Positions 13,729-58,337 of a DNA stretch of 64,000 nucleotides are shown here, piece after piece. The first letter of the stretch is position 1. Each line of letters starts with the position of its first letter. The DNA lies in NCBI GenBank assembly GCA_003242085.1, contig QBML01000010.1, forward strand, positions 41,983-105,982. The letters run 5' to 3'. The position numbers and the translations under genes were made by a program. Under the pieces are notes generated by a model. It did no database searches, was not told the origin of the DNA, and saw only the letters and a program-made list of their open reading frames with translations. This DNA is from Pseudanabaena frigida. GTDB lineage: Bacteria; Cyanobacteriota; Cyanobacteriia; Pseudanabaenales; Pseudanabaenaceae.

Positions 13729-14325
13729 TTATTGCTCTTTCAGCCGATACCAGAAAAGTGTCAGCAAAATGATTCCAGTTAGCAATCCGTAAATCGCACC
13801 GATAAAAAGTGTCAGAAAATATCCTAATTCACTCATTAATAGACTGCCAATTAGGACGCTGATATACCAACTTGCCGTGGTTCCGACAATCCACCAGTTT
13901 GACAGCTTGAAGTCTTGTCTTAAGATCGTCCACTGTGCTAATCCCATTGAAAAACCACGCAGACAAGTATACATCGCTAAAAAATCAACTGCGTCTCCAT
14001 AGGTAATCGCTAACTGAAAACTCGCCCAAGAACTCAGATACCCACCCACGGTACCGCCAATCGAAGTCGTCCATAACCATCCCCTCCCCAAAATATATTT
14101 TCTGAGCGCTAGCCACTGTGCTGCCGCGATCGCCAAGCTCATCGCTGTAAAACTCAGTAAAATGCCAAGATTGCCTTGTATGTAATATGTGACGAAAGTA
14201 CTGATTTTGCCGCCAACTGAGTAACCGATCGCGGTTGCTACAACCCAAAGCGGTAAAAAGCTCCAATGTGGTTTCCGTATGGTTAGCCTTTTTACTCTAA
14301 ACTTTATCCTAAGCTTTTCTAGCAA
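13729..14325 (-). CDS. Hypothetical multi-pass membrane protein (start uncertain)
   Basis: About six hydrophobic helices with repeated AQW.LR motifs. The TTG start lies only 17 bp from the divergent gene, so the true start may be internal. Confidence 0.65.
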   Translation of the reverse strand: MLEKLRIKFRVKRLTIRKPHWSFLPLWVVATAIGYSVGGKISTFVTYYIQGNLGILLSFTAMSLAIAAAQWLALRKYILGRGWLWTTSIGGTVGGYLSSWASFQLAITYGDAVDFLAMYTCLRGFSMGLAQWTILRQDFKLSNWWIVGTTASWYISVLIGSLLMSELGYFLTLFIGAIYGLLTGIILLTLFWYRLKEQ

Positions 14326-14342
14326 AGATTTGAGCCTAATTA

Positions 14343-15350
14343 ATGAGAAGACTATACTTTTTACTTCCAGGAACTACAAGTAAATTTGCCTGTGGTGGAT
14401 TGTGGGCAGAATTAAAAACGCTAAGACTGACGCAACAGGTTTGTTCTGCGGAAGTAGTTACTTATCGCCAACGCGAGAAAGATCATCTATGGCTCGATGA
14501 TTTGCTAAATACTGATGACACTAATCGCGCCTTAGATGATGTAATTTTTGTGATGTGTTGGGGCTTTGACGTTGCCAAACTAGCTCCTAAGTTAAAGTCA
14601 CTTAATGCGATTTATCATGCCCATAGTGTCGGTTATGGATTTAACTTGTCATCCAGTGTGCCAATTATTACAGTCAGCCGCAATACGCTAGGCTACTGGG
14701 GGCAGCGATCGCCCCATGCGCTACTTTACTATTTACCTAACGAGATTTCTGATAAGTTTCATGATTACCAAGGCGATCGCGATATTGATGTTTTAGTTCA
14801 GGCTCGGAAATCTTCTCGCTATTTGATGAAACAATTAATTCCCGCTTTGCAAGATCGCTGTAATGTAAAAATTGTTGATAGTTATGTAGAGGATTTAGAA
14901 GGATTATTTAATCGAGCGAAAGTTTATCTATATGATTCGGCAGAGTACTGGGCAGTGCAAGGTGTAACTGAAGGCTTTGGACTGCAACCAATGGAAGCTA
15001 TGGCATGTGGATGTCAAGTTTTTTCAAGTATCAATCACGGCTTATCCGATTATCTAGATCCAGCTTTTAACTGTTATAAAATTGCTGGTTATTCTCAAGA
15101 ATTCGATCTGCAACGCATTCTCAAAGTAATTCATAGTGAGAAAAAGCTAGCTTTAGCACCAAGCATTTTAGAAGAATATCGATCGGAAAATATTATTAAT
15201 CGCTTACAAGTAATATTAGATGACTTAAATGAATTTTTCGATCGCAAACAATCCTACCAAAGCGATATTCCAGATTTAAATTACTGGCAAATTATGAAGT
15301 TGCGATCGAAAAGAATATTCACAAAGTTCAGCAAAAAATTAAAGAATTAA
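14343..15350 (+). CDS. Glycosyltransferase (GT-B, GT4-like)
   Basis: C-terminal EGFGLQPMEAMACGC motif. Confidence 0.8.
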   Translation: MRRLYFLLPGTTSKFACGGLWAELKTLRLTQQVCSAEVVTYRQREKDHLWLDDLLNTDDTNRALDDVIFVMCWGFDVAKLAPKLKSLNAIYHAHSVGYGFNLSSSVPIITVSRNTLGYWGQRSPHALLYYLPNEISDKFHDYQGDRDIDVLVQARKSSRYLMKQLIPALQDRCNVKIVDSYVEDLEGLFNRAKVYLYDSAEYWAVQGVTEGFGLQPMEAMACGCQVFSSINHGLSDYLDPAFNCYKIAGYSQEFDLQRILKVIHSEKKLALAPSILEEYRSENIINRLQVILDDLNEFFDRKQSYQSDIPDLNYWQIMKLRSKRIFTKFSKKLKN

Positions 15351-15379
15351 AAGAAGTGACGCAAAACGTCACTTCTTTT
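15349..15379. terminator. Hairpin at glycosyltransferase stop, 13-bp stem, likely bidirectional terminator
   Basis: AAAAGAAGTGACG-CAAAA-CGTCACTTCTTTT between convergent genes. Confidence 0.65.
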
Positions 15380-15403
15380 TGCGTGTTTAGGCTTCATGTA
15401 GTA

Positions 15404-15482
15404 CAAGAAATTTTTTGAAAGTTTTGCTTCGCAAAACTTTCAAAAAATTTCTTGGTTTTTGAGAAAGTGCAAAGCGCTGTAA
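15404..15482. repeat. Long hairpin element, family B copy 1 (24-bp perfect stem + GTGCAAAGCGCTGTAA tail)
   Basis: CAAGAAATTTTTTGAAAGTTTTGC-TTC-GCAAAACTTTCAAAAAATTTCTTG; tail at 15467-15482. Confidence 0.9.
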
Positions 15483-15487
15483 TTCTT

Positions 15488-16342
15488 TTAGTTCTTAACC
15501 AGTCCCGTTAATGGAGAACTCGCACTTGCATAAGCTTTGATAGGAATTCTGCCCGATAAATAGGCGGTTCTTCCTGCTTCGGTTGCCATACCCATTGCTC
15601 TTCCCATAGCAACTGGATTACTAGCACAGGCGATCGCGGTATTCACCAACAAAGCTGCTGCTCCCAACTCCATCGCCGCCGCCGCTTCGCTCGGCACACC
15701 GATTCCCGCATCGACAACTACAGGTACTTTTGCCTCTTCGATGATGATCGAAATATTGGCGGCATTATTAATCCCTTGCCCTGAACCAATCGGTGATCCG
15801 AGAGGCATCACGGTGACGCAACCAATTTCTTCAAGGGTTTTGGCAAGCCTTGGATCGGCATTGATATAAGGCAGTACCGCGAAGCCTTCTTTGACCAACT
15901 GTTCGGCAGCTTTACAAGTTCCCAGCGGATCGGGTAGTAAATACTTAAGATCGGGAATTACTTCTAGCTTGACAAAATTATTATCTTCTTGACCCAAGAT
16001 TTTTGCCATCTCGCGTCCTAATCTTGCTACGCGCACCGCCTCATCGGCAGTTTGACAGCCTGCGGTATTTGGCAAGAGCCAATATTTGCTCCAGTTGATC
16101 GCTTCACCCAGTCCTTCATGTCCTGCCGCATTGGTTTGCACTCTTCGTACCGCCACGGTGACAATTTCGCAGCCACTAGCCTCGATCGCCTGACGCATCA
16201 CATCAAAATTGGCATATTTACCTGAGCCAGTCATTAGTCGCGATCGGAACTTACGACCCGCAATTTCGAGCAGATCGTCAGATAAATCCGTAGAGTCAGA
16301 TATTTGGTTACTTAGAGTGAAAAAAGGCGAAGAAGCGATCAT
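15488..16342 (-). CDS. thiG: Thiazole synthase
   Basis: [55 protein letters not shown]. Confidence 0.97.
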
Positions 16343-16375
16343 ATCAAGGGATTAAAAGGTTATTTGCAAATCTCA

Positions 16376-16407
16376 AGGATTAAATGTGCTTGCGCGCATT
16401 TAATCCT
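16376..16407. repeat. Intergenic hairpin (14-bp stem, one G.T pair)
   Basis: AGGATTAAATGTGC-TTGC-GCGCATTTAATCCT. Confidence 0.7.
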
Positions 16408-16538
16408 ATGCTAATCAATTTCAAGGATATATAACAGTTTGCGGTTTGAAGGCGCAATTTTTTATTAAGATACTCTAGTGTCTTCTGTGATATCCAAAAT
16501 TTCCATAGTATTCCCATAGCAAGTAGCAATTTAGTTTC

Positions 16539-17486
16539 ATGGCTAACCTCAAATCTATCCGCGATCGCATCGGCACTGTTAAGAATACTCGCAAGATTAC
16601 TGAAGCAATGCGTCTTGTCGCCGCCGCAAAGGTCAGACGCGCTCAGCAGCAAGTTTTAGCAACTCGTCCCTTTGCCGATCGCCTCGCTCAAGTTCTCTAT
16701 CGCCTCCAGCAGCGCATCACTTTCGAGGATGTCAGTCTACCCTTACTCGACAAGCGTCCTGTTAAAACCGTTGGTCTACTGGTAATTTCAGGCGATCGCG
16801 GTCTTTGTGGTGGCTATAACTCATCGATTATCCGTCGTGCTGAAGCTCGTGCTAAAGAACTAAAAGAACAAGGTATTAATTACACCTTTATTTTAGTTGG
16901 TCGTAAGGCTGCGCAATACTTTGCCCGTCGCGATCAACCGATCGCCGCTAAGTTTACTAACTTAAACCAAATTCCTAATGCAGCTGAAGCTAATGCGATC
17001 GGTGATGAAATTACTTCAGCATTTTTAGGAGGCGTAATCGATCGTGTCGAGCTAATCTATACCCGCTTTGTGTCTTTGATTAGCTCTCGTCCCGCCGTGC
17101 AAACTCTATTGCCCCTTGAGCCACAAGGTCTAGAGCCTCAAGACGATGAAATTTTCCGCCTAATTACTCGTGGTGGCAAGTTTCAAGTTGAGCGCGAAAA
17201 ACGTGAAATTACAGTTAAGGAATTGCCCAAAGAATTAATTTTCGAGCAAAATCCCGAGCAAATCCTCGATGCGTTGCTGCCTCTTTACCTCAGCAATCAA
17301 ATCCTTCGCGCATTGCAAGAGTCTATTGCCAGCGAACTGGCTTCTCGGATGACGGCAATGAGTAATGCAACTGAGAATGCTGGCGATCTGATCAAGTCCC
17401 TCACCTTGCAGTACAACAAAGCACGTCAAGCAGCCATTACTCAAGAAATCCTTGAAGTTGTTGGTGGCGCAGCCGCTTTAACTTAA
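16539..17486 (+). CDS. atpG: F0F1 ATP synthase subunit gamma (atpC in cyanobacterial naming)
   Basis: [11 protein letters not shown]...[63 protein letters not shown]; includes the cyanobacterial insertion. Confidence 0.98.
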
Positions 17487-17525
17487 ACAAAAAGAGCGGT
17501 GCGTAGCACCGCTCTTTTTGTTTAA
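17483..17525. terminator. 20-bp perfect hairpin with GC-GTA-GC cap at the ATP synthase gamma stop
   Basis: TTAAACAAAAAGAGCGGTGC-GTA-GCACCGCTCTTTTTGTTTAA. Confidence 0.8.
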
Positions 17526-17538
17526 AGCAATTATCGAT

Positions 17539-17622
17539 CAAACTAAGAAAGATTTTGAAAGCGTTGCTTTGCAACGCTTTCAAAATCTTTCTTAGTTTGG
17601 GTTAGCGTGCAAAGCGCTGTAA
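17539..17622. repeat. Long hairpin element, family B copy 2 (29-bp perfect stem + GTGCAAAGCGCTGTAA tail)
   Basis: CAAACTAAGAAAGATTTTGAAAGCGTTGC-TTT-GCAACGCTTTCAAAATCTTTCTTAGTTTG; tail at 17607-17622. Confidence 0.9.
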
Positions 17623-17680
17623 GTTCAAAATGTCTTAACTTACAAAACTTTTAACAGAACAAGATTCTTTCTATGACTAT

Positions 17681-17711
17681 AAAAAAGGACAGGCATCGCC
17701 TGTCCTTTTTT
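17681..17711 (-). terminator. Probable intrinsic terminator of hup
   Basis: AAAAAAGGACAGGC-ATC-GCCTGTCCTTTTTT, directly after the hup stop. Confidence 0.75.
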
Positions 17712-17713
17712 TA

Positions 17714-18013
17714 TTAGTCAGAAGGAGGGCTGACTTGTTCCTTGAAGGACTTCCCAGCCGAAAAAGCAGGTACTTTAGTGGCAGGAATTTCCATCTTTTC
17801 ACCAGTTTTAGGATTGCGACCTTCTCTGGCTTTGCGTGCTCTAGCTTCAAATGAGCCGAAGCCAACCAAAGTTACTTTGTCTCCGCCAGCTACAGTATCA
17901 ATGATTACTTCAAGCGTAGCTGAGAGGACTTCGTCGGCAGTCTTTTTGTTGACTGACAAGCCTTTCTCGGTAGCTTTTTTAGCAATAGCATCAACTAGTT
18001 CACCTTTGTTCAT
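17714..18013 (-). CDS. hup: HU histone-like DNA-binding protein
   Basis: MNKGELVDAI, GDKVTLVGFGSF, RKAREGRNPKTGE, VPAFSAGK. Confidence 0.97.
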   Translation of the reverse strand: MNKGELVDAIAKKATEKGLSVNKKTADEVLSATLEVIIDTVAGGDKVTLVGFGSFEARARKAREGRNPKTGEKMEIPATKVPAFSAGKSFKEQVSPPSD

Positions 18014-18143
18014 AGGTTTCCCCTTTATATATAGATGATTATGAGTATGAGTTTAATGTCAAAGTAATACTTGTGCGATCGCTTTTTGCAGAACCCGCAC
18101 TGCCTATGACTTCTGTTTGATCATTCTAATAGCAACTTACCAC

Positions 18144-18159
18144 TTGTGTATATACACAA
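18144..18159. promoter_or_regulatory. 16-bp perfect palindrome in the hup/EamA divergent promoter region; candidate operator
   Basis: TTGTGTATATACACAA is its own reverse complement; it lies about 130 bp upstream of the hup start. Confidence 0.4.
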
Positions 18160-18480
18160 CGGTTAATTTATATGGATTTGAGCAGTTTTTTTTAATTACT
18201 TATTACTCTAATTCTTTATTAGATCGCTGTAACCCTTTGCTGGTAACGGTTTTGGCAAATCAAAAAACAATGGGAGTAGTGTAAGGCATACAGGGCAAGC
18301 ACTTCACAAAAGTTCAAGTTTTTCCAATAAATCTCTAAAATTAATCGAATGTGCCCCACCTAATTCAAAATTATTTTTAGTTGCTTTGTTCTCAATGATT
18401 CATAACTCGGGGTTTTGATCGAGATAGTATGATTAATAATTCGCAATTAAACTTTGCAATTCCACTCACTATCCTAAAGT

Positions 18481-19554
18481 ATGCAGTCATCTACTCCAGT
18501 CGATACCTCTGGACTAACTCGTCAGTCTCCATTAGTAATTGCGCCATTTTTCCTTTGGGGGACAGCAATGGTAGTGATGAAAGCGTTATTGCCACAAACA
18601 AGTCCCATGTTTATGGCGGCTGTACGATTGATCCCTGCTGGGATATTACTGGTTATTGGTGCTGCGTATTTTGGTAGAGCGCAACCAAAGAGCTGGCGTG
18701 CTTGGCTATGGATCGGCTTATTTGCCTTGGTTGATGGCACTATGTTTCAGGGCTTTTTAGTACAAGGTTTAGTCCGCACCAATGCAGGACTTGGCTCTTT
18801 GCTAATCGACTCTCAGCCTCTAGCTGTAGCAGTTCTTGCCGCAGTCCTATATAAAGAGAAAATTGGTGTTGGCGCAACTCTCGGTCTATTGGTTGGTGTA
18901 ATTGGGATTGGACTAATCGGATTGCCATCGGAATTGATGGCGGCTTTGCTAGCAGGAGATTTTGCCACCGTTTTAGAGGCGGGAGTATTTACACTAGGCG
19001 AGTGGTTTATGCTCGGAGCCTCATTGTCGATGGCGATCGGCACAATTTTGATCCGCCCTGTGGTGCGCTATGCCGATCCTGTGATGGCAACGGGTTGGCA
19101 CATGATTATTGGAGGAATTCCTTTATTATTGCTCTCAGCACAAATTGAGCAGAATCAATGGCAAGCTGTAAGCGCTTGGGGCTGGCTGGGAATGGCATAT
19201 ATGGCAATTATGGGCAGTGCCATATCCTATGGATTGTTTTTCTTTTTTGCATCTTCAGGTAGTTTGACAACTCTTAGTGGCTTGACCTTTTCGACCCCAG
19301 TTTTTGCTCTCATGTTTAGTAGCCTGTTTTTAGGTGAAAATCTCACTCTAGTGCAATGGATTGGTGTGATTTTGACCTTAACTAGCATTTACCTTGTCAG
19401 TATGCGCGGGTCAGGACAAGATAGTAATAAAGAGGATAAATCTGCTCCAGAAATTACTACTAATACGATGCTTCCTGCATCGGAGCAAGTCGTCGTTAGC
19501 TCGGTTATACCAGTTTTGCAGCAGCCCGTAAATGAATTGAGAATTCCCGAATAA
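18481..19554 (+). CDS. DMT/EamA family transporter
   Basis: About ten TM helices in two EamA repeats (FFLWGTAMV, SQPLAVAVLA, LFLGENLT). Confidence 0.9.
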   Translation: MQSSTPVDTSGLTRQSPLVIAPFFLWGTAMVVMKALLPQTSPMFMAAVRLIPAGILLVIGAAYFGRAQPKSWRAWLWIGLFALVDGTMFQGFLVQGLVRTNAGLGSLLIDSQPLAVAVLAAVLYKEKIGVGATLGLLVGVIGIGLIGLPSELMAALLAGDFATVLEAGVFTLGEWFMLGASLSMAIGTILIRPVVRYADPVMATGWHMIIGGIPLLLLSAQIEQNQWQAVSAWGWLGMAYMAIMGSAISYGLFFFFASSGSLTTLSGLTFSTPVFALMFSSLFLGENLTLVQWIGVILTLTSIYLVSMRGSGQDSNKEDKSAPEITTNTMLPASEQVVVSSVIPVLQQPVNELRIPE

Positions 19555-19558
19555 GTCT

Positions 19559-20632
19559 ATGCCCACTTTATATGCTGCAATTACTAATCATGGTTTTGGA
19601 CATGCAACACGAACTGCTGCTGTCCTTGCAGAACTACAACAGCGATCGCCTGATATTAAACTGATTATCGCGACGACAGCTCCGCGCTGGTTATTGGAGG
19701 AGTATATCGAAGGCGATTTTGTATATCATCATCGTGTTTTTGATGTGGGCGTGATCCAAATTGATAGTTTGCAGACCGATCGCGAGGCAACTTTTGCTGC
19801 ATGGCAACAAATTCGTGCGAACCAAGCAGACTTAATCAAAGCGGAAGTCAAATTTTTGCAAGAAAATAAAGTCGATTTGATTTTTGGGGATATTCCGCCA
19901 ATGACTGCTGAGATAGCGAAAGCTGCGAATATTCCTTGTTGGATGGCGGGTAATTTTGGCTGGGATTTTATCTATCGTGATTGGGGTGGCAAGTTTATTG
20001 AACTTGCTGAGGGGCTATCAGAAACCTATAGCCATTGCGATCGCCTCTTTCGGTTGCCATTTGCTGATTCGATGAGTTGCTTTCCCAACATACAAGATGT
20101 GGGATTGACTGGGGCAAAACCCAAATATTCAGCAGAATGTTTGCGTGAAAAATTTAATTTAGATAGCGATCGCCCCACCGCCCTACTTACTTTTGGTGGA
20201 TTAAGCTTGCAGTCAATTCCTTACCAAAATTTGGCAAATTTTCCTGATTGGCAATTTGTCACTTTCGATCGAGATGCTCCTGAAGCGCCAAATCTCACTA
20301 AAGCTAATTGCGATCGCCTTCGCCCTGTCGATTTGATGGTGGTATGCGATCGGCTTATCACTAAACCCGGCTATGGCACTTTATCTGAAGCTTTGCGCGT
20401 TGGGATTCCTGTTGTGTGTCTTACCCGTGAAGGATTTTTAGAAGCAGAAACTTTGATTGCGGGTTTAAAAAGCTATGCTGAGCATCTAATTATTTCTCCA
20501 CAAGAGTTTTATGAAGGTGACTGGACATTTCTTAACTCCCCATTCCAGTCTCCAGATTTAGCAGATGCTAAGCAACTGGATATGCATGGTGAAGCTACGG
20601 TCAATCAAGCGATTTTGGATTATCTATTCTAG
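19559..20632 (+). CDS. Glycosyltransferase-like protein (GT-B fold)
   Basis: ITNHGFGHATR at the N-terminus and LITKPGYGTLSEA at the C-terminus. Confidence 0.8.
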   Translation: MPTLYAAITNHGFGHATRTAAVLAELQQRSPDIKLIIATTAPRWLLEEYIEGDFVYHHRVFDVGVIQIDSLQTDREATFAAWQQIRANQADLIKAEVKFLQENKVDLIFGDIPPMTAEIAKAANIPCWMAGNFGWDFIYRDWGGKFIELAEGLSETYSHCDRLFRLPFADSMSCFPNIQDVGLTGAKPKYSAECLREKFNLDSDRPTALLTFGGLSLQSIPYQNLANFPDWQFVTFDRDAPEAPNLTKANCDRLRPVDLMVVCDRLITKPGYGTLSEALRVGIPVVCLTREGFLEAETLIAGLKSYAEHLIISPQEFYEGDWTFLNSPFQSPDLADAKQLDMHGEATVNQAILDYLF

Positions 20633-20767
20633 ATGTAGCACCTCGGTGCGATTAAAACCTGTACCGCACGCATAGAGTGCAGTGCAGATTTTGGATTTAG
20701 TTTTTAGTCATCATTATGTAACCGCCTAGAGTATTTTCCTTAGCAAAGGTAGTTTTGCTTAGGGCAT

Positions 20768-20822
20768 AAAACCCAAATAAGTAGAGGTGGTGCGAAGCGC
20801 CGCCTCTACTTATTTGGGTTTT
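20768..20822. repeat. Long hairpin element, family A copy 1 (26-bp stem, GC-GAA-GC cap)
   Basis: AAAACCCAAATAAGTAGAGGTGGTGC-GAA-GCGCCGCCTCTACTTATTTGGGTTTT, with two G.T pairs. Confidence 0.9.
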
Positions 20823-20985
20823 GATTTGTCAAAGATATCTCTTGCATCGCTATAAATCTAGAGAGAGAGGTATTTGTGAGCTTGTCTCTATCAAATTAAT
20901 TAAATTTACAAAGCAAACTTTGACTTGGTTGTTTTGATACACTTGGGATCGATTGTCAGCGTAAACTAAAAATCTCTCTGTCGCT

Positions 20986-21861
20986 GTGGAATCGACAAAT
21001 ATGGAAATCGATAAATGCTATCAACTTCTAGGACTAACATCCAATGCGACTTTAGAAGATGTCAATAAAGCTTATAAAGCTCTAGCGCTGCAATGGCATC
21101 CAGACCGCATTCCTAGAGAGAATGTGCAGCAACAACTACAAGCTCAAGAAAAGCTTAAAGAAATTAACCATGCAAGGGATAGCGTGCGAAAGGCTACCGA
21201 GCAGAAACAATCGACGGTGCAAGCTAGATATTCTCACCAGAATTCCAATCAAAGTAATCGACAATATCACCATCATCAAACTAGGTATCAAGGTAAATAT
21301 CAGAGCACTTATCAGGGAACATATCAGTCGCAGCACCAAACTTCAGAGCGTGCTTCAGAACGTTATTACCAAAATCAATCACAGTCCTATCAGCCTTATC
21401 AATCGCGCCAGCAAAACTATAAACAGTCAAATTCTCAGGCTGAATCATATAGTGCGTCTCAAACACCGCCTCAAGCTTCCCAAAAAACACAAAAGCCAGA
21501 CCATCTGACTGGGGCTGATTTAAGTGGAGCGAATTTGCGAGAAAAATACCTTGAAGGTCGAAATCTAAGCTACGCCAATCTGAGTAATGCTGATTTAACT
21601 GATGCTTTTTTGCATCGTGTCAATTTTCAAGGAGCAAATCTTCGAGGGGCAAATTTGTTCCGTGCCAATCTATTTCAAGCTAATTTGCAAAACGCCGATT
21701 TGCGTGAAGCTAATTTAATCGGTGCAGATTTGAGTGGTGCAGATTTGAGTGGTGCAAACTTGACTGGTGCCAAGATTGGCTTTGGCGAAAAAATTATGGT
21801 CAAACTAACGAGTGTTAACCTCAAAGGCGCGACCATGCCTAATGGGTCTATACATTTATAG
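20986..21861 (+). CDS. J-domain protein with Q/Y/S-rich linker and pentapeptide repeats
   Basis: J-domain with intact HPD (LQWHPD); low-complexity middle; A(D/N)L(S/X)XX repeats. Start is GTG 20986 or ATG 21001. Confidence 0.9.
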   Translation: MESTNMEIDKCYQLLGLTSNATLEDVNKAYKALALQWHPDRIPRENVQQQLQAQEKLKEINHARDSVRKATEQKQSTVQARYSHQNSNQSNRQYHHHQTRYQGKYQSTYQGTYQSQHQTSERASERYYQNQSQSYQPYQSRQQNYKQSNSQAESYSASQTPPQASQKTQKPDHLTGADLSGANLREKYLEGRNLSYANLSNADLTDAFLHRVNFQGANLRGANLFRANLFQANLQNADLREANLIGADLSGADLSGANLTGAKIGFGEKIMVKLTSVNLKGATMPNGSIHL

Positions 21862-21867
21862 ACACAC

Positions 21868-21908
21868 CAAAAAAGGATGGTAGTGCTTTGCACTACCATC
21901 CTTTTTTG
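21868..21908. terminator. 19-bp perfect hairpin with GC-TTT-GC cap after the J-domain gene
   Basis: CAAAAAAGGATGGTAGTGC-TTT-GCACTACCATCCTTTTTTG. Confidence 0.8.
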
Positions 21909-22489
21909 TGTTCAACAAAAATAGCGGGCATTGCCAATTATTAGTTAGCAATCCACGCTATAGAGGAATTATCCGAGACATTTCATTACATTAGCGACAA
22001 AAAAATGACTAAACATCAGCAAAATTGCTTGACTTAAATGTGCAGTCATTCATGTTTATAGATGCGATCGCTGTGCAGTTATGAAGTTAATGGGGAATTC
22101 GATCACAAGAAATCAATTTAGATATCCCTGTCAGATTATGGCGATACGACTCATTGAATTAGGGATTTAAATCTGGTAAGTGGTGATCTTGAAAATAATC
22201 AGAAATTGCTCAGATCTACCCAAAGAGCGATAGTACTGAAAATTTTAACTGAATTTTTCTGTCAAATTGGATACTTAATATACTTATCTCTTTCTCAAGG
22301 GTGATTTATGATCCCCATTAATATCGTAGTTTAAAAACTGGTCACTATCGTTTAAAATTTTTAGTCTTTGTATATGAGTCTAAAAAAGTTTAAAAACTAT
22401 TGATTTAATATTTGATTTTTAGCTATTTAAATTAACTTTTTTTTATTTATTTCCTAACAAACATCTCTGTTGCTTAACACCTAAAAAAT

Positions 22490-23329
22490 ATGTCTACATT
22501 GTCTACGTTGTGGGCGATCTCATTGAGTTCGCTTATTTCTAGTGCGTCTTCACCAATACTTTTATCTGAGATTGTTAATCAAAGCAACAATTACGATCTT
22601 CAGTTAATCTACCAAAAAAATACTGTTGTTGGTAATGATTCATCAATATCTAAAAAACGTCGATATGAGATCGAGTTTCATGCAAATTCGGCTAAAGAGT
22701 GGATGATAACAGTGAATCGTCAACCAACATTTTGGGTTAAAGATTTACCAGATGCAGCGATCGCTACGACAAAACTGGCTATGATCATGAGCGCTCAAGA
22801 CTTTGATTTTAATCTTATTGAGCCGATAGTAATAAATGGTGAATATATCGGTAAATATAAAAATGTAGTTTTATTTAAAATTCCTAAATCTGAGGTTGTA
22901 AACCCTTCATTAAACTTGACCCAATGGATTAATAATTTGCGAGTTGCTTCTGGGGCAGAGCCCTTGACCTTAGTCGAAGCTCAAAAGCGCATGTATCAAT
23001 TAGCGGTCACAAGCGAACAAATTGATGGGGTTGCTTCTTGGTATGGCCCCTATTTTCAGGGCAGACAGACAGCATCAGGAGAGCAGTTTGAACAGCAGGA
23101 TTTCACGGCTGCCCATCCTAGCTTGCCTTTTGATACTTATCTCAAAGTTACTAACCAGCAAAATGGTAGGTCAGTGGTAGTAAGAATTAACGATCGAGGT
23201 CCCTATGTGGGCGATCGCAATTTGGATTTATCTCATGCAGCTGCTATCGCCCTCAATAGTGACGAGGTTGGGGTTGTGCCAATTACTGCAACTGTGCTCG
23301 TGCCATCTGGTGCTAATCCTTTACATTAG
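22490..23329 (+). CDS. rlpA: Septal ring lytic transglycosylase RlpA family protein
   Basis: C-terminal DPBB motifs GVASWYG, TASGE, TAAHPSLPF, VVVRINDRGPY and LDLS. Confidence 0.88.
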   Translation: MSTLSTLWAISLSSLISSASSPILLSEIVNQSNNYDLQLIYQKNTVVGNDSSISKKRRYEIEFHANSAKEWMITVNRQPTFWVKDLPDAAIATTKLAMIMSAQDFDFNLIEPIVINGEYIGKYKNVVLFKIPKSEVVNPSLNLTQWINNLRVASGAEPLTLVEAQKRMYQLAVTSEQIDGVASWYGPYFQGRQTASGEQFEQQDFTAAHPSLPFDTYLKVTNQQNGRSVVVRINDRGPYVGDRNLDLSHAAAIALNSDEVGVVPITATVLVPSGANPLH

Positions 23330-23364
23330 AGAAAAGGTGCTGCTTAGCAGCGCCTTTTCTCTAA
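23326..23364. terminator. 18-bp hairpin spanning the whole gap between two convergent stop codons
   Basis: TTAGAGAAAAGGTGCTGC-TTA-GCAGCGCCTTTTCTCTAA, with one G.T pair. Confidence 0.8.
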
Positions 23365-24251
23365 CGTAAGTTTTCAGTACGAGTACCAATATCAAGAAAT
23401 TGGATCAACTTGACAGGATCGGCATTAAACATGAAAGCTCTAGAATCAGGTGTAATTTTATAACCTTCTTTTTCGGCAGCTTTTTGAGCGGCATAGGGCA
23501 GAGGACTGGATAGTTCAAACATCAAACGAGCATAAGGATCGTTCAATACTTCTGCGGTGTTGGGAAAAGAAACAGGCTGTGTATATTCGGCAGAAAGATG
23601 GATGTTATACAGCAGCACGGAACCATCAGAAGTACTCAGTTTTTTGAGGTTAAGCGCTTCCTCGGTCGGATCGCCATCCGTTGATTCACCATCAGTAATA
23701 TTGATAATTGTTGGTGGATAGCTGTTTGGATGTTTTTCAATCCAATCCTCTAGCAGGATACGCGCCAATGCAAATACGCTGCACATAGCTGTGCCACCAC
23801 TTGCCACAGGTTTAAACCAAATTGGAAAGTCGTTATAGACTTCGACAAGTCCTCCCATTCCATCAGGTAATTTTTGGGCGCGTTTTTCTAATTCGGTTGG
23901 ATTTTCGTAGATCTTCCCGATCGGGGCGATCGCATGGTTGCCAGCAACACCATTGAGTGCTGAGGCAACTTCGCTGTTGTAACCAATTACCCCAACATCA
24001 AAGTAATCATAAATTTCGTTACCTTTAACGCAACGTTGACCGAGTGAATCAAGTAAACGATTTACAGCATCAGCTACAGCCTGTGCTTTTTGGATGGGTT
24101 CACTGGTCTTATGCAAGCTTTCATTTGCACCTTTGGCTGTTCCTTTACTAGCACTTTCTCTGGAAAATGCATCTGCCATCGATCCCGATTGATCGATGAG
24201 AAATAGGAAGCAACTTGGTTGACGACGACTGATCTCTGCTGAGTAAGGCAT
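23361..24251 (-). CDS. vWA domain protein (TerY-like)
   Basis: MIDAS-type motifs FLIDQSGSM, GGTAM and NITDG. Confidence 0.82.
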   Translation of the reverse strand: MPYSAEISRRQPSCFLFLIDQSGSMADAFSRESASKGTAKGANESLHKTSEPIQKAQAVADAVNRLLDSLGQRCVKGNEIYDYFDVGVIGYNSEVASALNGVAGNHAIAPIGKIYENPTELEKRAQKLPDGMGGLVEVYNDFPIWFKPVASGGTAMCSVFALARILLEDWIEKHPNSYPPTIINITDGESTDGDPTEEALNLKKLSTSDGSVLLYNIHLSAEYTQPVSFPNTAEVLNDPYARLMFELSSPLPYAAQKAAEKEGYKITPDSRAFMFNADPVKLIQFLDIGTRTENLR

Positions 24252-24515
24252 ATTAAACTTACCCGATTCCTTATGTAGTATGTCTCAAGACTTAACCTCA
24301 GTCTAGCAAAGGTAAGCTCAATAAAAAGTCCCGCGATTAAAATTCAGCTATTTATAGTAAGCGTATGACGATCTAAACTATGATGCGTTCTTCCTCGAAG
24401 AGTCTGCTTTCTAAGCATTATGGCGTTTGCTTCTATTTTGTTAGTTATTATGATGTTAAGATATACAGCTTTTTAGCTGTCAATTTTTAGACCATCATTA
24501 AATACTCCTGAAATT

Positions 24516-25994
24516 ATGCTGTCTGTCAGTCTCAAAAAGATACTTCTAAAAGGAGAAGTACTGTCCTTATTGAGAGGATTAGTTAACACCATCACTTCTC
24601 CAATCGTAATTCAAGATCGAGATGGGAAGATTTTGGTTGCAGATCTGGGCACAGAAGCAATAGACAGAAAAAATTCAGACTTGAACAAAGCAGGTACAGA
24701 TCGGATTGAATTGGATACAGAAGCCAAAAAAATTCCTATTGTGCTGGATGAAGAAGTTTTAGGATGGGTTATTGGAGCAGAGATGGTTGAGCAGGTTGCT
24801 AATTTTATTAACTACTTGGTCAATCGTGAATTTGAGCGCAAAACGCTGGCGGCTGATGCTTTGGATAAATATCGAGAAATTAGCCTCCTGTATACGATCT
24901 CTAGTAAATTATCTAACTGCTTAGATGTTAAGGAAATTGGTGCACTGGTAATTGAGGAAGCTAGTCGTCTCATTAAATCTACTAGTGCCTCTGTGATGTT
25001 ACAGAATGAGCAAAATAATTGTCTTGAAATAATTTCAGCGAAGGGGACAGCCGAACAGATCAGTAGGTTAAAAATCCATAACAACGAAGGAATTGCGGGG
25101 CATGTATTTGTAACTGGTAAACCAGAGCTAGTAAATAATGCAACTCAAGACCCAAGGTATATCGCCATTGAGAATGAATCCTATGCGCTTATTTGCGTGC
25201 CAATTCTGACTAAAGATCGAATTTTAGGCGTTGTCAATATCAGTAATTCCGAACCAGTCAACTATACATCTCAAGATTTAAAGCTATTTACAGCGCTAGT
25301 TACACAGGCTTCTGGCGCAATTGAGAATGCGATTCTCCATGAGAGTAAATTGCGAGAAGAGAGAATCAAGAACAATTTGGAACGATATCTATCACCACAG
25401 GTAGCTCACGCGGTAATTAGTGCCAAAGGTGAAGTTTCTTTAACTACGAGTAAACGCAAAATTGCGATGCTGTTTTCCGATATTCGTAATTTCACAACTA
25501 AATGTGAAGAGCTTGAACCAGAGCAACTTGTCTCTTATCTCAATGAGTATTTTACGCAAATGGTTGATGTAATATTTAGCCATAAGGGAACTGTGAATAA
25601 ATTTGTGGGCGATATGATCGTGGCGATGTTTGGTGCACCTTCTGACATTCTAGATCGAGAAGAATGTGCGATCGCGGCAGCAATTAATATGCAAAAGCGA
25701 ATCAAAAATTTGCCAATTGATTGGATTCGCGACAACTTCATCACAGGCATTGGTATCAGCTCAGGCGATGTGATTGTCGGTAATATTGGTTCACCTCAGC
25801 ATATGGACTACACAGCGATCGGTGATGAGATGAATATTGCCTCACGATTACAAGGATTAGCTGAGGGTGGACAAATTCTAGTGACTCGAAGTGTATACGA
25901 GGCAACGCAGACAAAATTTCAATTTAGAGAGTTTGGAACTTTGCCTGTAAAAGGGAAAAAGAACTTAGTGGAAATTTTTGAAGTGATTTACTAA
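24516..25994 (+). CDS. GAF-domain class III adenylate/guanylate cyclase
   Basis: GAF (LICVPIL, LGVVNI); cyclase motifs MLFSDIRNFT, NKFVGDMIVAMFG, DYTAIGDEMNIASRLQ. Confidence 0.92.
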   Translation: MLSVSLKKILLKGEVLSLLRGLVNTITSPIVIQDRDGKILVADLGTEAIDRKNSDLNKAGTDRIELDTEAKKIPIVLDEEVLGWVIGAEMVEQVANFINYLVNREFERKTLAADALDKYREISLLYTISSKLSNCLDVKEIGALVIEEASRLIKSTSASVMLQNEQNNCLEIISAKGTAEQISRLKIHNNEGIAGHVFVTGKPELVNNATQDPRYIAIENESYALICVPILTKDRILGVVNISNSEPVNYTSQDLKLFTALVTQASGAIENAILHESKLREERIKNNLERYLSPQVAHAVISAKGEVSLTTSKRKIAMLFSDIRNFTTKCEELEPEQLVSYLNEYFTQMVDVIFSHKGTVNKFVGDMIVAMFGAPSDILDREECAIAAAINMQKRIKNLPIDWIRDNFITGIGISSGDVIVGNIGSPQHMDYTAIGDEMNIASRLQGLAEGGQILVTRSVYEATQTKFQFREFGTLPVKGKKNLVEIFEVIY

Positions 25995-26089
25995 AAAAGG
26001 TGGCGTTTAGTACCACCTTTATAGATTAATTTTGAATGCAAAGCGCTGTAAGTGATACATTAGTTTTGAGTAACCTCAAAGGCTTTAAA

Positions 26090-26473
26090 ATGAGCAAAAA
26101 GCTATTAATCGTTGATGATGAGCCTCACATCCGTTTGCTACTAGAGCAAACCTTAGAAGAGCTAGAAGATTATGATGTAGAGCTATTGACAGCAACTAAT
26201 GGGTTAGAAGCGCTTGAAACTATTCAGCGTGAAAAACCTAATTTAGTTTTTTTAGACGTAATGATGCCAAAAATGAATGGCTACGATGTATGTCAAAAAG
26301 TTAAAGGAGAATTAGGTCTGAGCGATGTATACATCATTATGCTGACCGCTAAGGGGCAAGAATTCGATCGCAGTCGTGGCAAAGATGTCGGGGCGGATAT
26401 TTATATGACTAAACCCTTCGATCCTGATGAAATCTTAGAAAAATCATTTGAAATCCTAGGGATAGAAGCTTAA
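26090..26473 (+). CDS. Single-domain response regulator
   Basis: LLIVDDE, LVFLDVMMP, LTAKG, MTKPF. ATG 26090 preferred over the ORF-track start at 26036. Confidence 0.92.
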   Translation: MSKKLLIVDDEPHIRLLLEQTLEELEDYDVELLTATNGLEALETIQREKPNLVFLDVMMPKMNGYDVCQKVKGELGLSDVYIIMLTAKGQEFDRSRGKDVGADIYMTKPFDPDEILEKSFEILGIEA

Positions 26474-27748
26474 ATGGGTGTAAACCTGACTTGTAAGTTA
26501 AGCGATCGCTTTCTAGATAGTAACCAAGGCAGCAGTCAGCGCCAATTGGCGATCTCTGTTTCGGCTAGTGCTGCTGTCGATGGTGGTAATGCCCCTCTTA
26601 ATCTGTGTCTAGTCTTAGATCACAGTGGCTCTATGGGAGGGCAGCCCCTTGATACTGTCAAACGTGCTGCTCGCGATTTAGTGGATCGCATGTATCCGCA
26701 AGATCGAATTAGTGTAGTTGGATTTGACCATAAAGCTAAAGTCGTTGTCGAAAATCAACTGGTAGATAGGGTTGAATCGATTAAAGAAAAGATTCAATCA
26801 CTCAAGGCTTCGGGTGGTACTTGTATCGATGATGGGATCAAACTTGGCTTGCAGGAAACTAGTAAGGGTAAGGATGGAACAGTTAGCCAGATTTTTGTGC
26901 TAACTGATGGGGAAAATGAGCATGGTGATAATGAGCGTTGCTTTCAGTTTTCGCGCTTGGCGACTGAATATAACATGACCTTACATAGTCTTGGTTTTGG
27001 TGATAGCTGGAATCAAGATGTGTTAGAACGCATTGCTGACGCAGGTGGTGGTGCGATGGCATACATTCCATCTCCTGCGGCTGCGGGTGAAGAATTTCAA
27101 AAGTTGTTACGGCGAGTTCAAGCGATCGGGCTGACCAATGCCCATTTGATCCTACAGCTAGCTCCTCACGTAAGACTTGCCGAATTAAAACCGATCGCCC
27201 AAGTTGCGCCTGATACGATCGAGTTACCTTATCAAACCGAAGGTGATGCAATTATTGTCAGGCTCGGCGATCTGATGACAGATGTAGAACGAGTAGTGTT
27301 GTTTAATCTTTATATCAGCCCTGCGAGCTACATTGCTCAGTATCCAGATCGTTCTGAAATTCCGATTTTGACAGCTCAAGTCCGCTTTGATATTCCCTCA
27401 CTAGCTCAAATTAATTCGCTATCATCATCAGTGGCGATCGCTGCGGACTTAGTCCAAGATTTTACGCCGCAGGTCGATCCACAAGTCCAAAACCATTTAT
27501 TAGCTTTAGCTAAATATCGTCAAACACAGCTTGCCGAACAAAAACTTCAACAGGGCGATCGTGCTGGTGCTGCGACAATGTTACAATCTGCAGCAAAAAC
27601 TGCTTTGCAAATGGGTGATCGAAATGCTTCAACGATTCTGCAAAATAATGCAACACGGTTGCAATCAGGTACAGAACTGAGTGAATCCGATCGTAAAAAA
27701 ACACGAATTGCATCCAAAACTGTCCTGCAACCGCCTACGAATTCCTAA
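26474..27748 (+). CDS. vWA domain protein
   Basis: LVLDHSGSMGG, ASGGT and VLTDGENEHG MIDAS motifs; begins directly after the response regulator stop. Confidence 0.9.
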   Translation: MGVNLTCKLSDRFLDSNQGSSQRQLAISVSASAAVDGGNAPLNLCLVLDHSGSMGGQPLDTVKRAARDLVDRMYPQDRISVVGFDHKAKVVVENQLVDRVESIKEKIQSLKASGGTCIDDGIKLGLQETSKGKDGTVSQIFVLTDGENEHGDNERCFQFSRLATEYNMTLHSLGFGDSWNQDVLERIADAGGGAMAYIPSPAAAGEEFQKLLRRVQAIGLTNAHLILQLAPHVRLAELKPIAQVAPDTIELPYQTEGDAIIVRLGDLMTDVERVVLFNLYISPASYIAQYPDRSEIPILTAQVRFDIPSLAQINSLSSSVAIAADLVQDFTPQVDPQVQNHLLALAKYRQTQLAEQKLQQGDRAGAATMLQSAAKTALQMGDRNASTILQNNATRLQSGTELSESDRKKTRIASKTVLQPPTNS

Positions 27749-52733: not shown

Positions 52734-53090
52734 ATGAAAGAAGAAAACATTATCCAGACTAAAAGTTATGCATTTGCTGTGCGTATAGTTAGACTTCATC
52801 AACATCTCGTAAACACAAAAAAAGAATATGTTCTGTCTAAACAAATATTGCGATCGGGAACCAGTATCGGCGCAAATGTTGAAGAGGCGATCAGTGGGCA
52901 GTCAAAAGCTGACTTTATCTCCAAACTATCCATAGCCTACAAAGAAGCCCGTGAAACAAGCTACTGGCTAAGACTATTAAAAGATACCGATTACCTGACC
53001 GAAAAAGAATTTGAAAGCATACATCCCGATGTAGAAGAACTATGTCGGATTATTGGGAGCATACAGAAAAGTGCGAAGGGGAATGAATAA
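52734..53090 (+). CDS. Four helix bundle protein (TIGR02436 / 23S rRNA-IVP / Avd-like family)
   Basis: KSYAFAVRIVRL, LSKQILRSGTSIGANVEEA, SKADFISKLSIAYKEARETSYWLRLL. ATG 52734 preferred. Confidence 0.93.
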   Translation: MKEENIIQTKSYAFAVRIVRLHQHLVNTKKEYVLSKQILRSGTSIGANVEEAISGQSKADFISKLSIAYKEARETSYWLRLLKDTDYLTEKEFESIHPDVEELCRIIGSIQKSAKGNE

Positions 53091-53148
53091 TTACGAATTA
53101 TCAATTACGATTTAAAATTTCGTAATTCGTAATTCGTAATTCGTAATT
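53089..53148. repeat. Heptamer arrays: three forward copies (one variant), then T + (CGTAATT)x4 inverted
   Basis: AATTACG-AATTATC-AATTACG at 53089-53109; inverted copies at 53121, 53128, 53135 and 53142. Confidence 0.95.
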
Positions 53149-55672: not shown

Positions 55673-55784
55673 AACAATTTACTCCCTTCCCAGTAAAGAA
55701 TAAGTGGTGCGCGGCTTTGCCGCGCACCACTTATTCTTTACTTTACAGCACCTATTCTTTCGGTGCTAAGGGAGTAAATTGTTT
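55672..55784. mobile_element. Nested palindromes: 58-bp hairpin element inserted into the left arm of a 23-bp-arm palindrome
   Basis: Outer arms AAACAATTTACTCCCTT|AGCACC and GGTGCTAAGGGAGTAAATTGTTT. The insert at 55689-55746 contains a 24-bp perfect stem with a GC-TTT-GC cap (55692-55742). Confidence 0.75.
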
Positions 55785-58210: not shown

Positions 58211-58273
58211 ATTCTGTTTTTTTAATGATATCTAGCCGCCTATATAACAATGCAAGTTTTTTGTTTAGGACAT

Positions 58274-58328
58274 AAAACCCAAATAAATAGAGGTGGCGCG
58301 AAGCGCCACCCCTATTTATTTGGGTTTT
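58274..58328. repeat. Long hairpin element, family A copy 2 (26-bp stem, GC-GAA-GC cap)
   Basis: AAAACCCAAATAAATAGAGGTGGCGC-GAA-GCGCCACCCCTATTTATTTGGGTTTT, one mismatch. Confidence 0.9.
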
Positions 58329-58337
58329 CAAAATTTG

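Follow-up and report, generated by a model that had tools for sequence, protein, structure and literature searches.

Insertion sequences of the IS630/Tc1 type are reported to insert only at the dinucleotide TA, to duplicate this TA and to move with no hairpin intermediate (PMC2170065). For palindromes, template switching is reported to act between imperfect inverted repeats, where it homogenises the two arms and inverts the spacer between them (PMC8604942, PMC7202029). Here we describe short hairpin-bearing elements of Pseudanabaena, named family B, which are quite probably explained best by both together: a non-coding IS630/Tc1-type MITE whose arms are kept complementary by arm-to-arm copying. 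Two copies lie in the window, which is the whole analysed stretch of 64,000 nucleotides, and coordinates without a contig name refer to it. A first-pass annotation of the window had read them as non-autonomous elements of the IS200/IS605 kind.

The Pseudanabaena genome carrying the window is 5.39 Mb, and the genome scan proposed in that annotation, made as an nhmmer profile search, gave about 211 family B loci on most contigs, 120 of them near full length. The layout is TA-CAGC…GCTG-TA. On the left stands the inverted repeat TACAGCAATTACCGATCAAACGAACCACAAG or, in a second type, TACAGCCTGTTTAGGC…; the central palindrome of 24 bp has GC-NNN-GC as its closure, and the right-hand inverted repeat reads …GAGCGCAAAGCGCTGTA. 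The modal length is 105 nt from TA to TA, with about 101 nt between the two TAs, and the element contains no ORF. The elements are almost wholly intergenic: the midpoints of 12 out of 211 fall in open frames of at least 150 codons, and such frames make up 82% of the genome. Median identity is 86% between nearest neighbours and 79% over all pairs of copies. Family B was found only in Pseudanabaena/Pseudanabaenales assemblies, and it is a high-copy, genus-specific MITE family in Pseudanabaena.

Copy 1 belongs to subfamily 1 and occupies 15377..15481 on the plus strand (nhmmer match 15375-15485, 86.4 bits); the consensus of this subfamily, built from at least 9 copies, is TACAGCCTGTTTAGGCTTTATGTAGTAC…GGGTTTTGAGAAAGCGCAAAGCGCTGTA. 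Its left tip is degenerate, with TTTTGC instead of TACAGC, and directly adjoins the terminator T-run of the gene upstream. The central palindrome (15404..15454) has arms at 15404-15427 and 15431-15454 which form a perfect stem of 24 bp, with the 3-nt loop TTC between GC…GC. The right terminal inverted repeat (15455..15479, plus strand) was placed by alignment with IS630 inverted repeats and by the end logo; it contains the mini-hairpin AGTGC-AAA-GCGCT at 15466-15478 and closes with GCTG, then TA. By analogy with three empty/filled pairs elsewhere, this TA (15480..15481) would be the target duplication of copy 1. No exact empty allele of the copy 1 site was found, the orthologous DNA in six species being too diverged. 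Copy 1 is absent from the orthologous intergenic region in six other species, where a plain terminator or a different hairpin is present instead.

Copy 2, from subfamily 2, was delimited with the subfamily consensus and extends from TA to TA at 17523..17621 on the plus strand (nhmmer match 17519-17625, 92.2 bits). Its left end is TAAAGCAATTATCGATC, with C to A at the third base, and a deletion in the left arm lengthens the pairing. The central palindrome (17539..17599) thus consists of arms 17539-17567 and 17571-17599, a perfect 29 bp around the loop TTT, followed by the right terminal inverted repeat (17600..17619, plus strand, GGTTAGCGTGCAAAGCGCTG). The earlier claim of two perfect hairpins with 24-nt arms is therefore right as to perfection, and the second arm is 29 bp, not 24. 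DNA folding compared with shuffled sequences gave -27 kcal/mol (z = -7.0) for copy 1 and -36.7 kcal/mol (z = -10.7) for copy 2. The identical tail noticed behind both hairpins is real: GTGCAAAGCGCTGTAA directly follows each of them, and it corresponds to the right terminal inverted repeat plus the putatively duplicated TA.

A tail match beside a weaker hairpin had also been annotated near 26038. Only TGCAAAGCGCTGTAA is present there (26037-26051), with no family hairpin, and the stem at about 25987-26016 is a terminator-like stem of the upstream gene. The locus, which nhmmer did not call a family B member, is a remnant with a right-end fragment and without the central hairpin (26020..26050, plus strand, TA-TAGATTAATTTTGAATGCAAAGCGCTG-TA). 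Solo or internally deleted tails of this sort occur elsewhere too, for example at C33:40096 and C65:84921. A scan of positions 14000-27000 with Rfam (E ≤ 1) gave sub-threshold generic hairpin matches to miRNA/sRNA models, and none reached the gathering score.

The end logo shows TACAGC/GCTGTA conserved at about 95%, and about 95% of copies have a TA at each end. Instead of a distinct left and a distinct right end, the element has symmetric inverted repeats, TACAGC…GCTGTA. Just beyond them there is a symmetric T/A preference: the base after GCTGTA is A in 51/90 copies, and the mirror T on the left is found in 53/90. Three precise empty sites, from three species pairs, contain one TA when empty and two when filled. 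The filled alleles are in this genome (C4:7260, empty in G015:C727), in P. minima (L064, empty in this genome at C23) and in SR411 (L081, empty in this genome at C56), and the empty sites read …AGT-TA-ATA…, …TTT-TA-AAT… and …CTC-TA-AAA…. So family B insertion duplicates TA, usually within T-TA-A. TTAC, at which the first-pass annotation had set the boundaries, occurs in 0 of the three empty sites; its C belongs to the element, and its first T reflects target preference only. Concatenated-flank matches for blocks 1, 15 and 18 were rejected as exact empty sites, the relatives having another hairpin or diverged DNA there. The presence/absence polymorphism between species records past mobility of family B. 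The annotated status as non-autonomous mobile elements is borne out.

Congeneric genomes have insertion sequences of 1064 bp whose inverted repeat is nearly that of family B. Those in G055 (L164), G044 and G013 (the set L164, L156, L165) have TA on each flank and the inverted repeat TACAGCAAATACCGATCAAACCCGCCACAAG, which is identical to the left end of family B at 27/31 positions; the L155 element of G023 has the inner part of this repeat in common. The right end of family B shares TACAGC and TCAAACCC with the repeat and differs from it at positions 7-15. The 1064-bp elements have two ORFs (HTH, DDE_3) with an A-run between them, and the ORFs of L164 match the NCBIfam model 'IS630 family transposase' (NF033545) and the Pfam models DDE_3 (PF13358) and HTH_Tnp_IS630 (PF01710). 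Based on the TA duplication and the 27/31 match to an IS630 inverted repeat, family B is an IS630/Tc1-type MITE, not a relative of IS200/IS605 or REP/RAYT. An IS630-family DDE transposase acting in trans would have mobilised it; this enzyme is predicted to bind the ends of about 30 bp and to cut and paste double-stranded DNA with no hairpin intermediate. Transposition of this type does not require the central palindrome.

No transposase with ends matching family B was found in this assembly. It has no contigs <5.4 kb, and may for that reason lack an insertion sequence that had collapsed. The two IS630 genes of this genome were rejected as partners: their inverted repeats are different (TATAGCAAATTTC…, TATAGTAAATTC…), and a frameshift and a stop codon interrupt one of the two genes. 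Their transposases gave no tblastn match among 118 retrieved loci, and when the G055 insertion sequence was compared with this genome by blastn, the sole match was one of 56 nt to the C17 IS630 copy. A search of this genome for a longer element between family B ends gave only neighbouring MITEs 2.6-4.6 kb apart. Because the copies are old, as shown by the median nearest-neighbour identity of 86%, and no matching insertion sequence is present in the draft assembly, family B is probably immobile now.

Two other origins have to be weighed against the IS630-type MITE. In a non-autonomous IS200/IS605-type (PATE-like) element, a Y1 HUH transposase would cut the minus strand at TTAC, a little 5' of a subterminal hairpin. 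On the minus strand the two window copies do show TTAC and then a small hairpin, AGCGC-TTT-GCGCT, but conservation stops at GCTGTA and TTAC has its first T in only about 58% of copies. The terminal inverted repeats are symmetric and match those of IS630, including at the left end, and the three empty sites with duplicated TA and without TTAC refute the IS200/IS605 identity, to which we give next to no credence. The genome does encode an IS200-type TnpA as well as two RAYT-like Y1 proteins, but these three Y1_Tnp matches (C29, C17, C33) are each flanked by other, unrelated repeats and were rejected as partners. The RAYT-like genes could also suggest REPIN-like doublets of REP sequences, spread by RAYT (REP-associated tyrosine transposase), and an imperfect palindrome of about 105 nt with symmetric ends, high copy number and intergenic position would suit such doublets. 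However, each RAYT-like gene (C17:9791-10324, C33:33359-33889) has GTAG-tagged REPs of its own on the flanks (GTAGGGTGCGTTA…, GCGTAGAAGGGGCGAGC…) and not family B, which has no GTAG or CGTC tag. As the duplicated TA and the match to the IS630 inverted repeat also argue against it, a REPIN origin is extremely improbable.

The stem was studied in copies with at least 18/24 paired positions (176/211 loci), with the hairpin centre set by best-of-24 pairing; 169 of these have the AAAG arm signature. In stem positions 7-21, counted from the loop, 98.0% of pairs are Watson-Crick in 167 distinct copies, a fraction slightly inflated by this selection of copies, compared with 69.1 ± 0.5% (maximum 71%) after column shuffling. 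When the partners were slid by 1-3 positions, the Watson-Crick fraction dropped to 25-56%. Thus the mirrored arm differences, first noticed between the two window copies, hold throughout the genome. The same positions 7-21 diverge between copies at 30.9% of sites. Double-sided changes number 698, and the 169 copies have 153 distinct 24-nt arms. The mismatch profile along the stem is U-shaped, with 11% at positions 1-6 beside the loop, 2% at positions 7-21 and 19% at positions 22-24. Among the mismatches, G·T (89) shows no wobble excess over A·C (86). Positions 7-10 are nearly invariant, and conservation is also seen at some positions (GAAAG) and in the NAA/TTN loop. In copies strictly oriented by their asymmetric ends, the loop is NAA in 30 and TTN in 26. 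Extended pairing of 27-39 bp was found in 29 copies, where 3-15 nt of one arm's end sequence is the exact complement of the other arm, and the end sequences are overwritten in both directions. Between orthologous copies in the nearest species the differences are compensated pairs, with loops GAA vs TAA, GAA vs TTA and AAA vs TTC. One orthologous copy that has lost both ends and lies beside another terminator hairpin still has a compensated stem.

The annotation had left two ways to keep the arms identical, selection or arm-to-arm copying; the identity is indeed maintained, and the evidence favours copying. Selection would act on the folded hairpin of the same IS630-type MITE and restore the pairing by ordinary compensatory point mutations; the hairpin might terminate transcription, stabilise RNA or be a structure required for mobilisation. 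Selection is attractive in that many copies, the two in the window among them, are found immediately downstream of genes with a T-rich run after the stem on one strand, that the family is almost wholly intergenic, that mismatches are rarest in mid-stem, and that the loop is limited to NAA/TTN and positions 7-10 hardly vary. But selection at the RNA level predicts that G·T is commoner than A·C, which is not the case, and a separate canonical GC-rich terminator stands directly before both window copies, so that a second terminator would be redundant. Point mutation and selection could not produce the 3-15 nt blocks which are exact complements of the other arm; the spacer occurs in both orientations; and compensation persists in the copy that lost both ends and lies next to another terminator hairpin. 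In addition, the stem diverges at 31% per site, at least at the whole-element rate (79% median identity, all pairs), and not slowly as under strong purifying selection. We therefore regard selection on the hairpin as unlikely, though it keeps some weight.

The lack of G·T excess, both loop orientations, the outward extension and the compensated orthologues and decayed copies together point to templated copying rather than RNA-level selection. It is rather likely that the arms are held as exact complements in place by DNA-level copying of one arm onto the other. During replication, the nascent strand would fold back or cross to the other template, primed by the 4-6 bp nearest the loop, and stem positions 1-6 are presumed to be this primer segment. 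After copying the opposite arm outward, the primed strand would go back to its own template. Any mutation of a single arm would then be either erased or written into both arms, which should give fast divergence between copies and near-zero mismatch within a copy. The 3-nt spacer would be flipped in the process, and the palindrome would sometimes grow into the end sequences. On the other side, selection for a stable hairpin would likewise leave few mid-stem mismatches, and the conserved GAAAG positions and NAA/TTN loop hint at constraint.

The hairpin core may also be an exchangeable module and not a passive part of the MITE, although we think this quite unlikely. The same end sequences surround unrelated cores: the AT-rich core of family B and the GC-rich core of family A (CCCAAATAAATAGAGGCGGCGC-GAA-GCGCCGCC…) have a right end in common. 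At one orthologous site this genome has the B core and the nearest species has the A core, with the same end and the same flank, and a GC-NAA-GC cap is common to all cores. If core exchange is true, the creation, swapping or insertion of capped hairpins inside IS630-type ends throughout Pseudanabaena would be a new kind of small-element dynamics, and its route could be hairpin-targeted insertion or MITE recombination at extruded cruciforms.

These results mean that TTAC with a hairpin is insufficient for an IS608-type assignment; empty sites and end symmetry separate the two types from sequence alone. Family B and its IS630 parent are now defined in Pseudanabaena, a genus that forms blooms and odours, and the family is of use in annotation, assembly and strain typing. 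The approximately 170 copies are a natural replicate experiment on palindrome evolution, at a scale beyond reporter assays. They are an unusually clear natural record of palindrome homogenisation, in which arm homogenisation, spacer inversion and outward growth are the signatures of template switching. They also give a caution for RNA-structure prediction: DNA-level copying can yield perfect compensatory covariation without a selected RNA structure.

Among known systems, IS200/IS605 elements and PATEs (IS608: TTAC target, subterminal hairpins) resemble family B in TTAC beside a small hairpin on one strand and in being hairpin-rich and non-coding; family B differs by target duplication, symmetric inverted repeats, empty sites without TTAC and the lack of a Y1 gene with matching ends. 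The REP/REPIN-RAYT system (GTAG/CGTC-tagged palindromes, PMC3733652) shares dispersed intergenic palindromic doublets, whereas family B has no tag and no RAYT association and duplicates TA. Correia, ERIC and RUP MITEs (PMC3184786, PMC10969869) are also about 100-150 nt, with one long hairpin, are gene-adjacent and can act on transcripts, but their parent insertion-sequence family and host are different; in the literature searched, we found no description of a copy-specific perfect core with spacer flipping for these three kinds of MITE and their like.

Family B is closest to the IS630 insertion sequences and MITEs of the Tc1/mariner superfamily, such as ISY100 of Synechocystis PCC 6803 (PMC2170065), with which it has the TA duplication and ends starting TA-CAG in common. 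Its ends of about 30 bp are as in the 1064-bp elements of the congeners, and it is likewise small, non-coding, multi-copy and intergenic. It differs in that its two ends are unlike, the mini-hairpin standing in place of positions 7-15 at the right end (in subfamily 1, at the left end too), in its long, nearly perfect palindrome core that varies from copy to copy, and in the lack of a matching transposase in the genome. Quasipalindrome template-switch mutagenesis in E. coli and yeast (PMC7202029, PMC8604942) provides the parallel for this core: arm homogenisation, spacer inversion and multi-nucleotide changes which lengthen the palindrome are all found in family B. That process is known from reporter hotspots, whereas our inference for family B draws on about 170 copies of a mobile element in nature.

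The two window hairpins described in the first-pass annotation are real. The copy 1 hairpin (15404-15454) has perfect 24-bp arms and a TTC loop, and that of copy 2 (17539-17599) is perfect even across 29 bp, with a TTT loop; GTGCAAAGCGCTGTAA follows 12 nt and 7 nt downstream, respectively. Folded as single-stranded DNA they gave -27 and -36.7 kcal/mol (z-scores of -7.0 and -10.7), with none of the shuffles folding equally well, and the Rfam search here gave no match at the gathering score. A third site had been proposed near 26038. Its tail match stands, but the tail is present alone (26037-26051), the adjoining stem is a terminator-like one belonging to the upstream gene, and the profile search did not call a family member there. 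Elsewhere in the window (53081-53148), the heptamer AATTACG occurs in inverted arrays.

The host genome (5.39 Mb, 67 contigs, 41.8% G+C) had 8641 copies of GCGATCGC, which marks it as cyanobacterial, and 54 of the 12-mer AAAGCGCTGTAA, the latter mostly joined to a non-coding unit of about 105 nt, family B. The profile built from the copies found via this 12-mer identified 211 distinct loci, of which 120 hold a nearly full-length copy. Only 12 of the 211 midpoints lay inside stop-to-stop frames of at least 150 codons, which make up 82% of the genome. Two subfamilies have the core and right end in common and differ in the left end, TACAGCCTGTTTAGGCTTTATGTAGTAC… in window copy 1 and TACAGCAATTACCGATCAAACGAACCAC… in copy 2. 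The host copies are old, with a median nearest-neighbour identity of 85.8% and a maximum of 96.2%. Family B was present in all 24 congeneric genomes searched. An exact 20-mer of its tail matched over 118 stretches in public genomes. These come from Pseudanabaena/Pseudanabaenales, except for loosely named or likely mislabelled records (Phormidium tenue FACHB-1050, 'Oscillatoriales', 'uncultured cyanobacterium') and a single 1.7-kb contig of an alphaproteobacterial MAG.

In 90 copies anchored at their ends, TACAGC (left) and GCTGTA (right) were about 95% conserved, at a modal distance of 105 nt. Immediately outside, the left flank had T in 53/90 copies and G in just 4, and the right flank had A in 51/90 and C in just 3; beyond this base the flanks were random. 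These counts mean that the GTAA/TTAC noted earlier is TA plus a weak symmetric flank preference. We searched relatives with the joined flanks of 27 host copies and, reciprocally, the host genome with the flanks of 75 copies that belong to other species, and found three exact empty sites. The host copy at C4:7260-7365 (…CTAAGT-TA-CAGC…GCTG-TA-ATAAAG…) corresponded to …CTAAGT-TA-ATAAAG… on contig C727 of G015, the nearest species, with flanks 94% identical. A P. minima copy (L064, …GCTTTT-TA-CAGC…GCTG-TA-AAG…) corresponded to host C23 (…GCTTTT-TA-AAT…), and a copy of strain SR411 (L081) to host C56 (…GCTC-TA-AAA…). All three pairs had one TA when empty and two when filled, and TTAC was in none of the three empty sites, so the proposed TTAC boundary is replaced by a duplicated TA. 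The target T-TA-A is common at A/T runs flanking terminators, and therefore both window copies follow a terminator. At the MITE ends, small palindromes lie directly after TAC (for example window 15466-15478 and 17606-17618) and replace positions 7-15 of the insertion-sequence repeat. The right end has AGCGC-AAA-GCGCT, and the left end of subfamily 1 has AGCCT-GTTT-AGGCT.

DDE_3 genes were present in 40 of 41 genomes of the genus. The host had only two, both IS630-like with other inverted repeats, and one of them broken. Among loci fetched from relatives, 1064-bp elements in three genomes (G055, G044, G013) were bounded by TACAGCAAAT(A/T)CCGATCAAACCCGCCACAAG in inverted orientation, and the G023 element had the inner part of this repeat in common. 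The G055 element (L164) is flanked by TA…TA and codes for two proteins, one HTH (118 aa) and one DDE (191 aa), with an A-run between them, matching NCBIfam NF033545 (IS630 family transposase), Pfam DDE_3 and HTH_Tnp_IS630. The MITE left end matches the repeat at 27 of 31 positions, and the right end has TACAGC, TCAAACCC and CCAAG in common with it. IS630/Tc1 elements insert solely at TA, which is duplicated, with no hairpin intermediate (PMC2170065). The TA duplication and the shared IS630 inverted repeat thus identify family B as an IS630-type MITE. The first-pass annotation was right that the elements are non-autonomous and wrong in the transposon family, IS200/IS605. No copy of the parent insertion sequence was found in the host assembly; this assembly has no contig below 5.4 kb, so a collapsed copy could have been dropped.

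IS200/IS605 and REP/RAYT identities were both rejected on their defining tests. The resident Y1 transposases were rejected as partners as well, since the TnpA gene (C29) and both RAYT-like genes (C17, C33) have repeats of their own on either side that differ from family B. The IS200-type TnpA (C29:50255-50677; Y1_Tnp, 98.9 bits) is bracketed by a direct repeat of about 130 nt, present in two copies, …CCAAGAA…TTCTTGGCTAAAAGCTAAAGTCAGTTAAAAC…CCCGTTTCAACGGG…. The RAYT-like genes (C33:33359-33889 and C17:9791-10324) each have a flanking GTAG-tagged REP family (GTAGGGTGCGTTAATG…; GCGTAGAAGGGGCGAGCACGGGGGCATCGCCCCTAC…), and thus the host also has classical REP/RAYT systems unrelated to family B.

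Different cores were found between the same ends. At one orthologous site, host C60:10664 has the family B core and G015 (L179, C20) the GC-rich core of family A, with the same end and flank, and four chimeras (C55:165008, C11:116193, C2:67824, C8:73125) carry the family B right end on a family A core. These could reflect an exchange of cores, MITEs recombining with each other, or more than one insertion at the same TA. Family A hairpins (window 20725-20866 and 58243-58343) read CCCAAATAA(A/G)TAGAGGTGG(C/T)GC-GAA-… and lie between IS630-like ends TATA(A/G)C(A/G)ATGCAAG… and …AAATTTGCTAT, the latter resembling TATAGCAAATTTC, the inverted repeat that bounds the broken IS630 copy (C17:21276); this is probably a sister MITE family. 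At window 55689-55760, a 58-nt hairpin described as an insertion in the arm of another hairpin is followed by TTTACAGCACC-TATTCTTTC-GGTGCT, the TACAGC tip and mini-hairpin also seen at the ends of family B; the hairpin that received the insertion may be a MITE end in its own right. Between two tRNA genes (C11:17100-17480; orthologous loci L145 and L146), the host and G015 have a family B MITE, while the corresponding spot in G009 and G013 has an unrelated hairpin, TTAGATTCATCGTGC-AAA-GCACGATGAATCTAA; past the second tRNA gene there is one more hairpin, in which the species differ by compensated changes. At C31:55939, a solo end, TACAGCAATGTTCGATCAAACCCGCCACAAG, has an inverted repeat whose inner half is still of the insertion-sequence type, and is joined to another core, GGGTCGCAGGGCGAAGCCCCGCAATGGG; this insertion sequence may thus have given rise to a third MITE lineage.

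The mirrored arm differences seen at the window copies hold over 167 distinct copies. With copies centred on the loop and k counted outward from k = 1 next to it, 2455 of 2505 cells at k = 7-21 (98.0%) were Watson-Crick, against 69.1 ± 0.5% (maximum 71%) after column shuffling and 25-56% with the partner slid 1-3 positions. All 15 of these positions had two to four pair types, 698 cells over k = 1-24 differed on both sides from the commonest pair, and arms of different copies diverged at 30.9% of sites. Since 153 of 169 copies have a distinct 24-nt arm, the covariation is not inheritance of a few subfamily haplotypes.

We consider it probable that the arms are kept complementary by copying at the DNA level, with one arm as template for the other, as had been suggested; mismatch classes, spacer flips, templated blocks and compensated orthologues all favour it. 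Selection for the hairpin could also keep the arms complementary, but we regard this as rather unlikely. RNA-level selection would favour G·U, whereas G·T mismatches were not in excess over A·C (89 vs 86 over k = 1-24, 14 vs 19 at k = 7-21). Furthermore, a separate canonical GC-rich terminator lies directly upstream of both window copies, after which a second, selected one would be redundant. Among copies whose asymmetric ends gave a strict orientation, the 3-nt loop was NAA in 30 and TTN in 26, so the spacer flips freely. In 29 copies pairing was uninterrupted over 27-39 bp, 3-15 nt of end sequence of one arm being swapped for the exact complement of the other (for example C6:76811, C11:147249 and C3:58547; in the reverse direction C22:198822); such blocks are templated events, not point mutations. 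The orthologous G015 copies differ from those of the host by compensated pairs: host AAATTTTTT/AAAAAATTT between the two tRNA genes corresponds to AAAATTTTT/AAAAATTTT, and C67:61647 differs by several, among them an A-to-G change paired with T-to-C, from an orthologue that has lost both ends. It means that upkeep of the stem takes place at the site itself once the element has inserted, and goes on even where the element is dead.

Mismatch frequency was U-shaped, at 11.3% (k = 1-6), 2.0% (k = 7-21) and 18.8% (k = 22-24). This fits fold-back primed by loop-proximal bases, the primer bases themselves escaping correction; the profile is weak support on its own, as selection could also produce it. 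Copying and hairpin selection are not mutually exclusive. The conserved GAAAG stem positions and NAA/TTN loop suggest that the ability to fold may be important in its own right; read on the NAA strand, the loop motif is GC-NAA-GC, as in d(GCGAAGC), a very stable mini-hairpin.

Covariation among repeat copies thus need not imply a selected RNA structure, and family B adds an extensive natural record of how palindromes are homogenised. When a polymerase switches template between imperfect inverted repeats, two products are recognised, arm homogenisation and spacer inversion (PMC8604942, PMC7202029), and both are present in family B.
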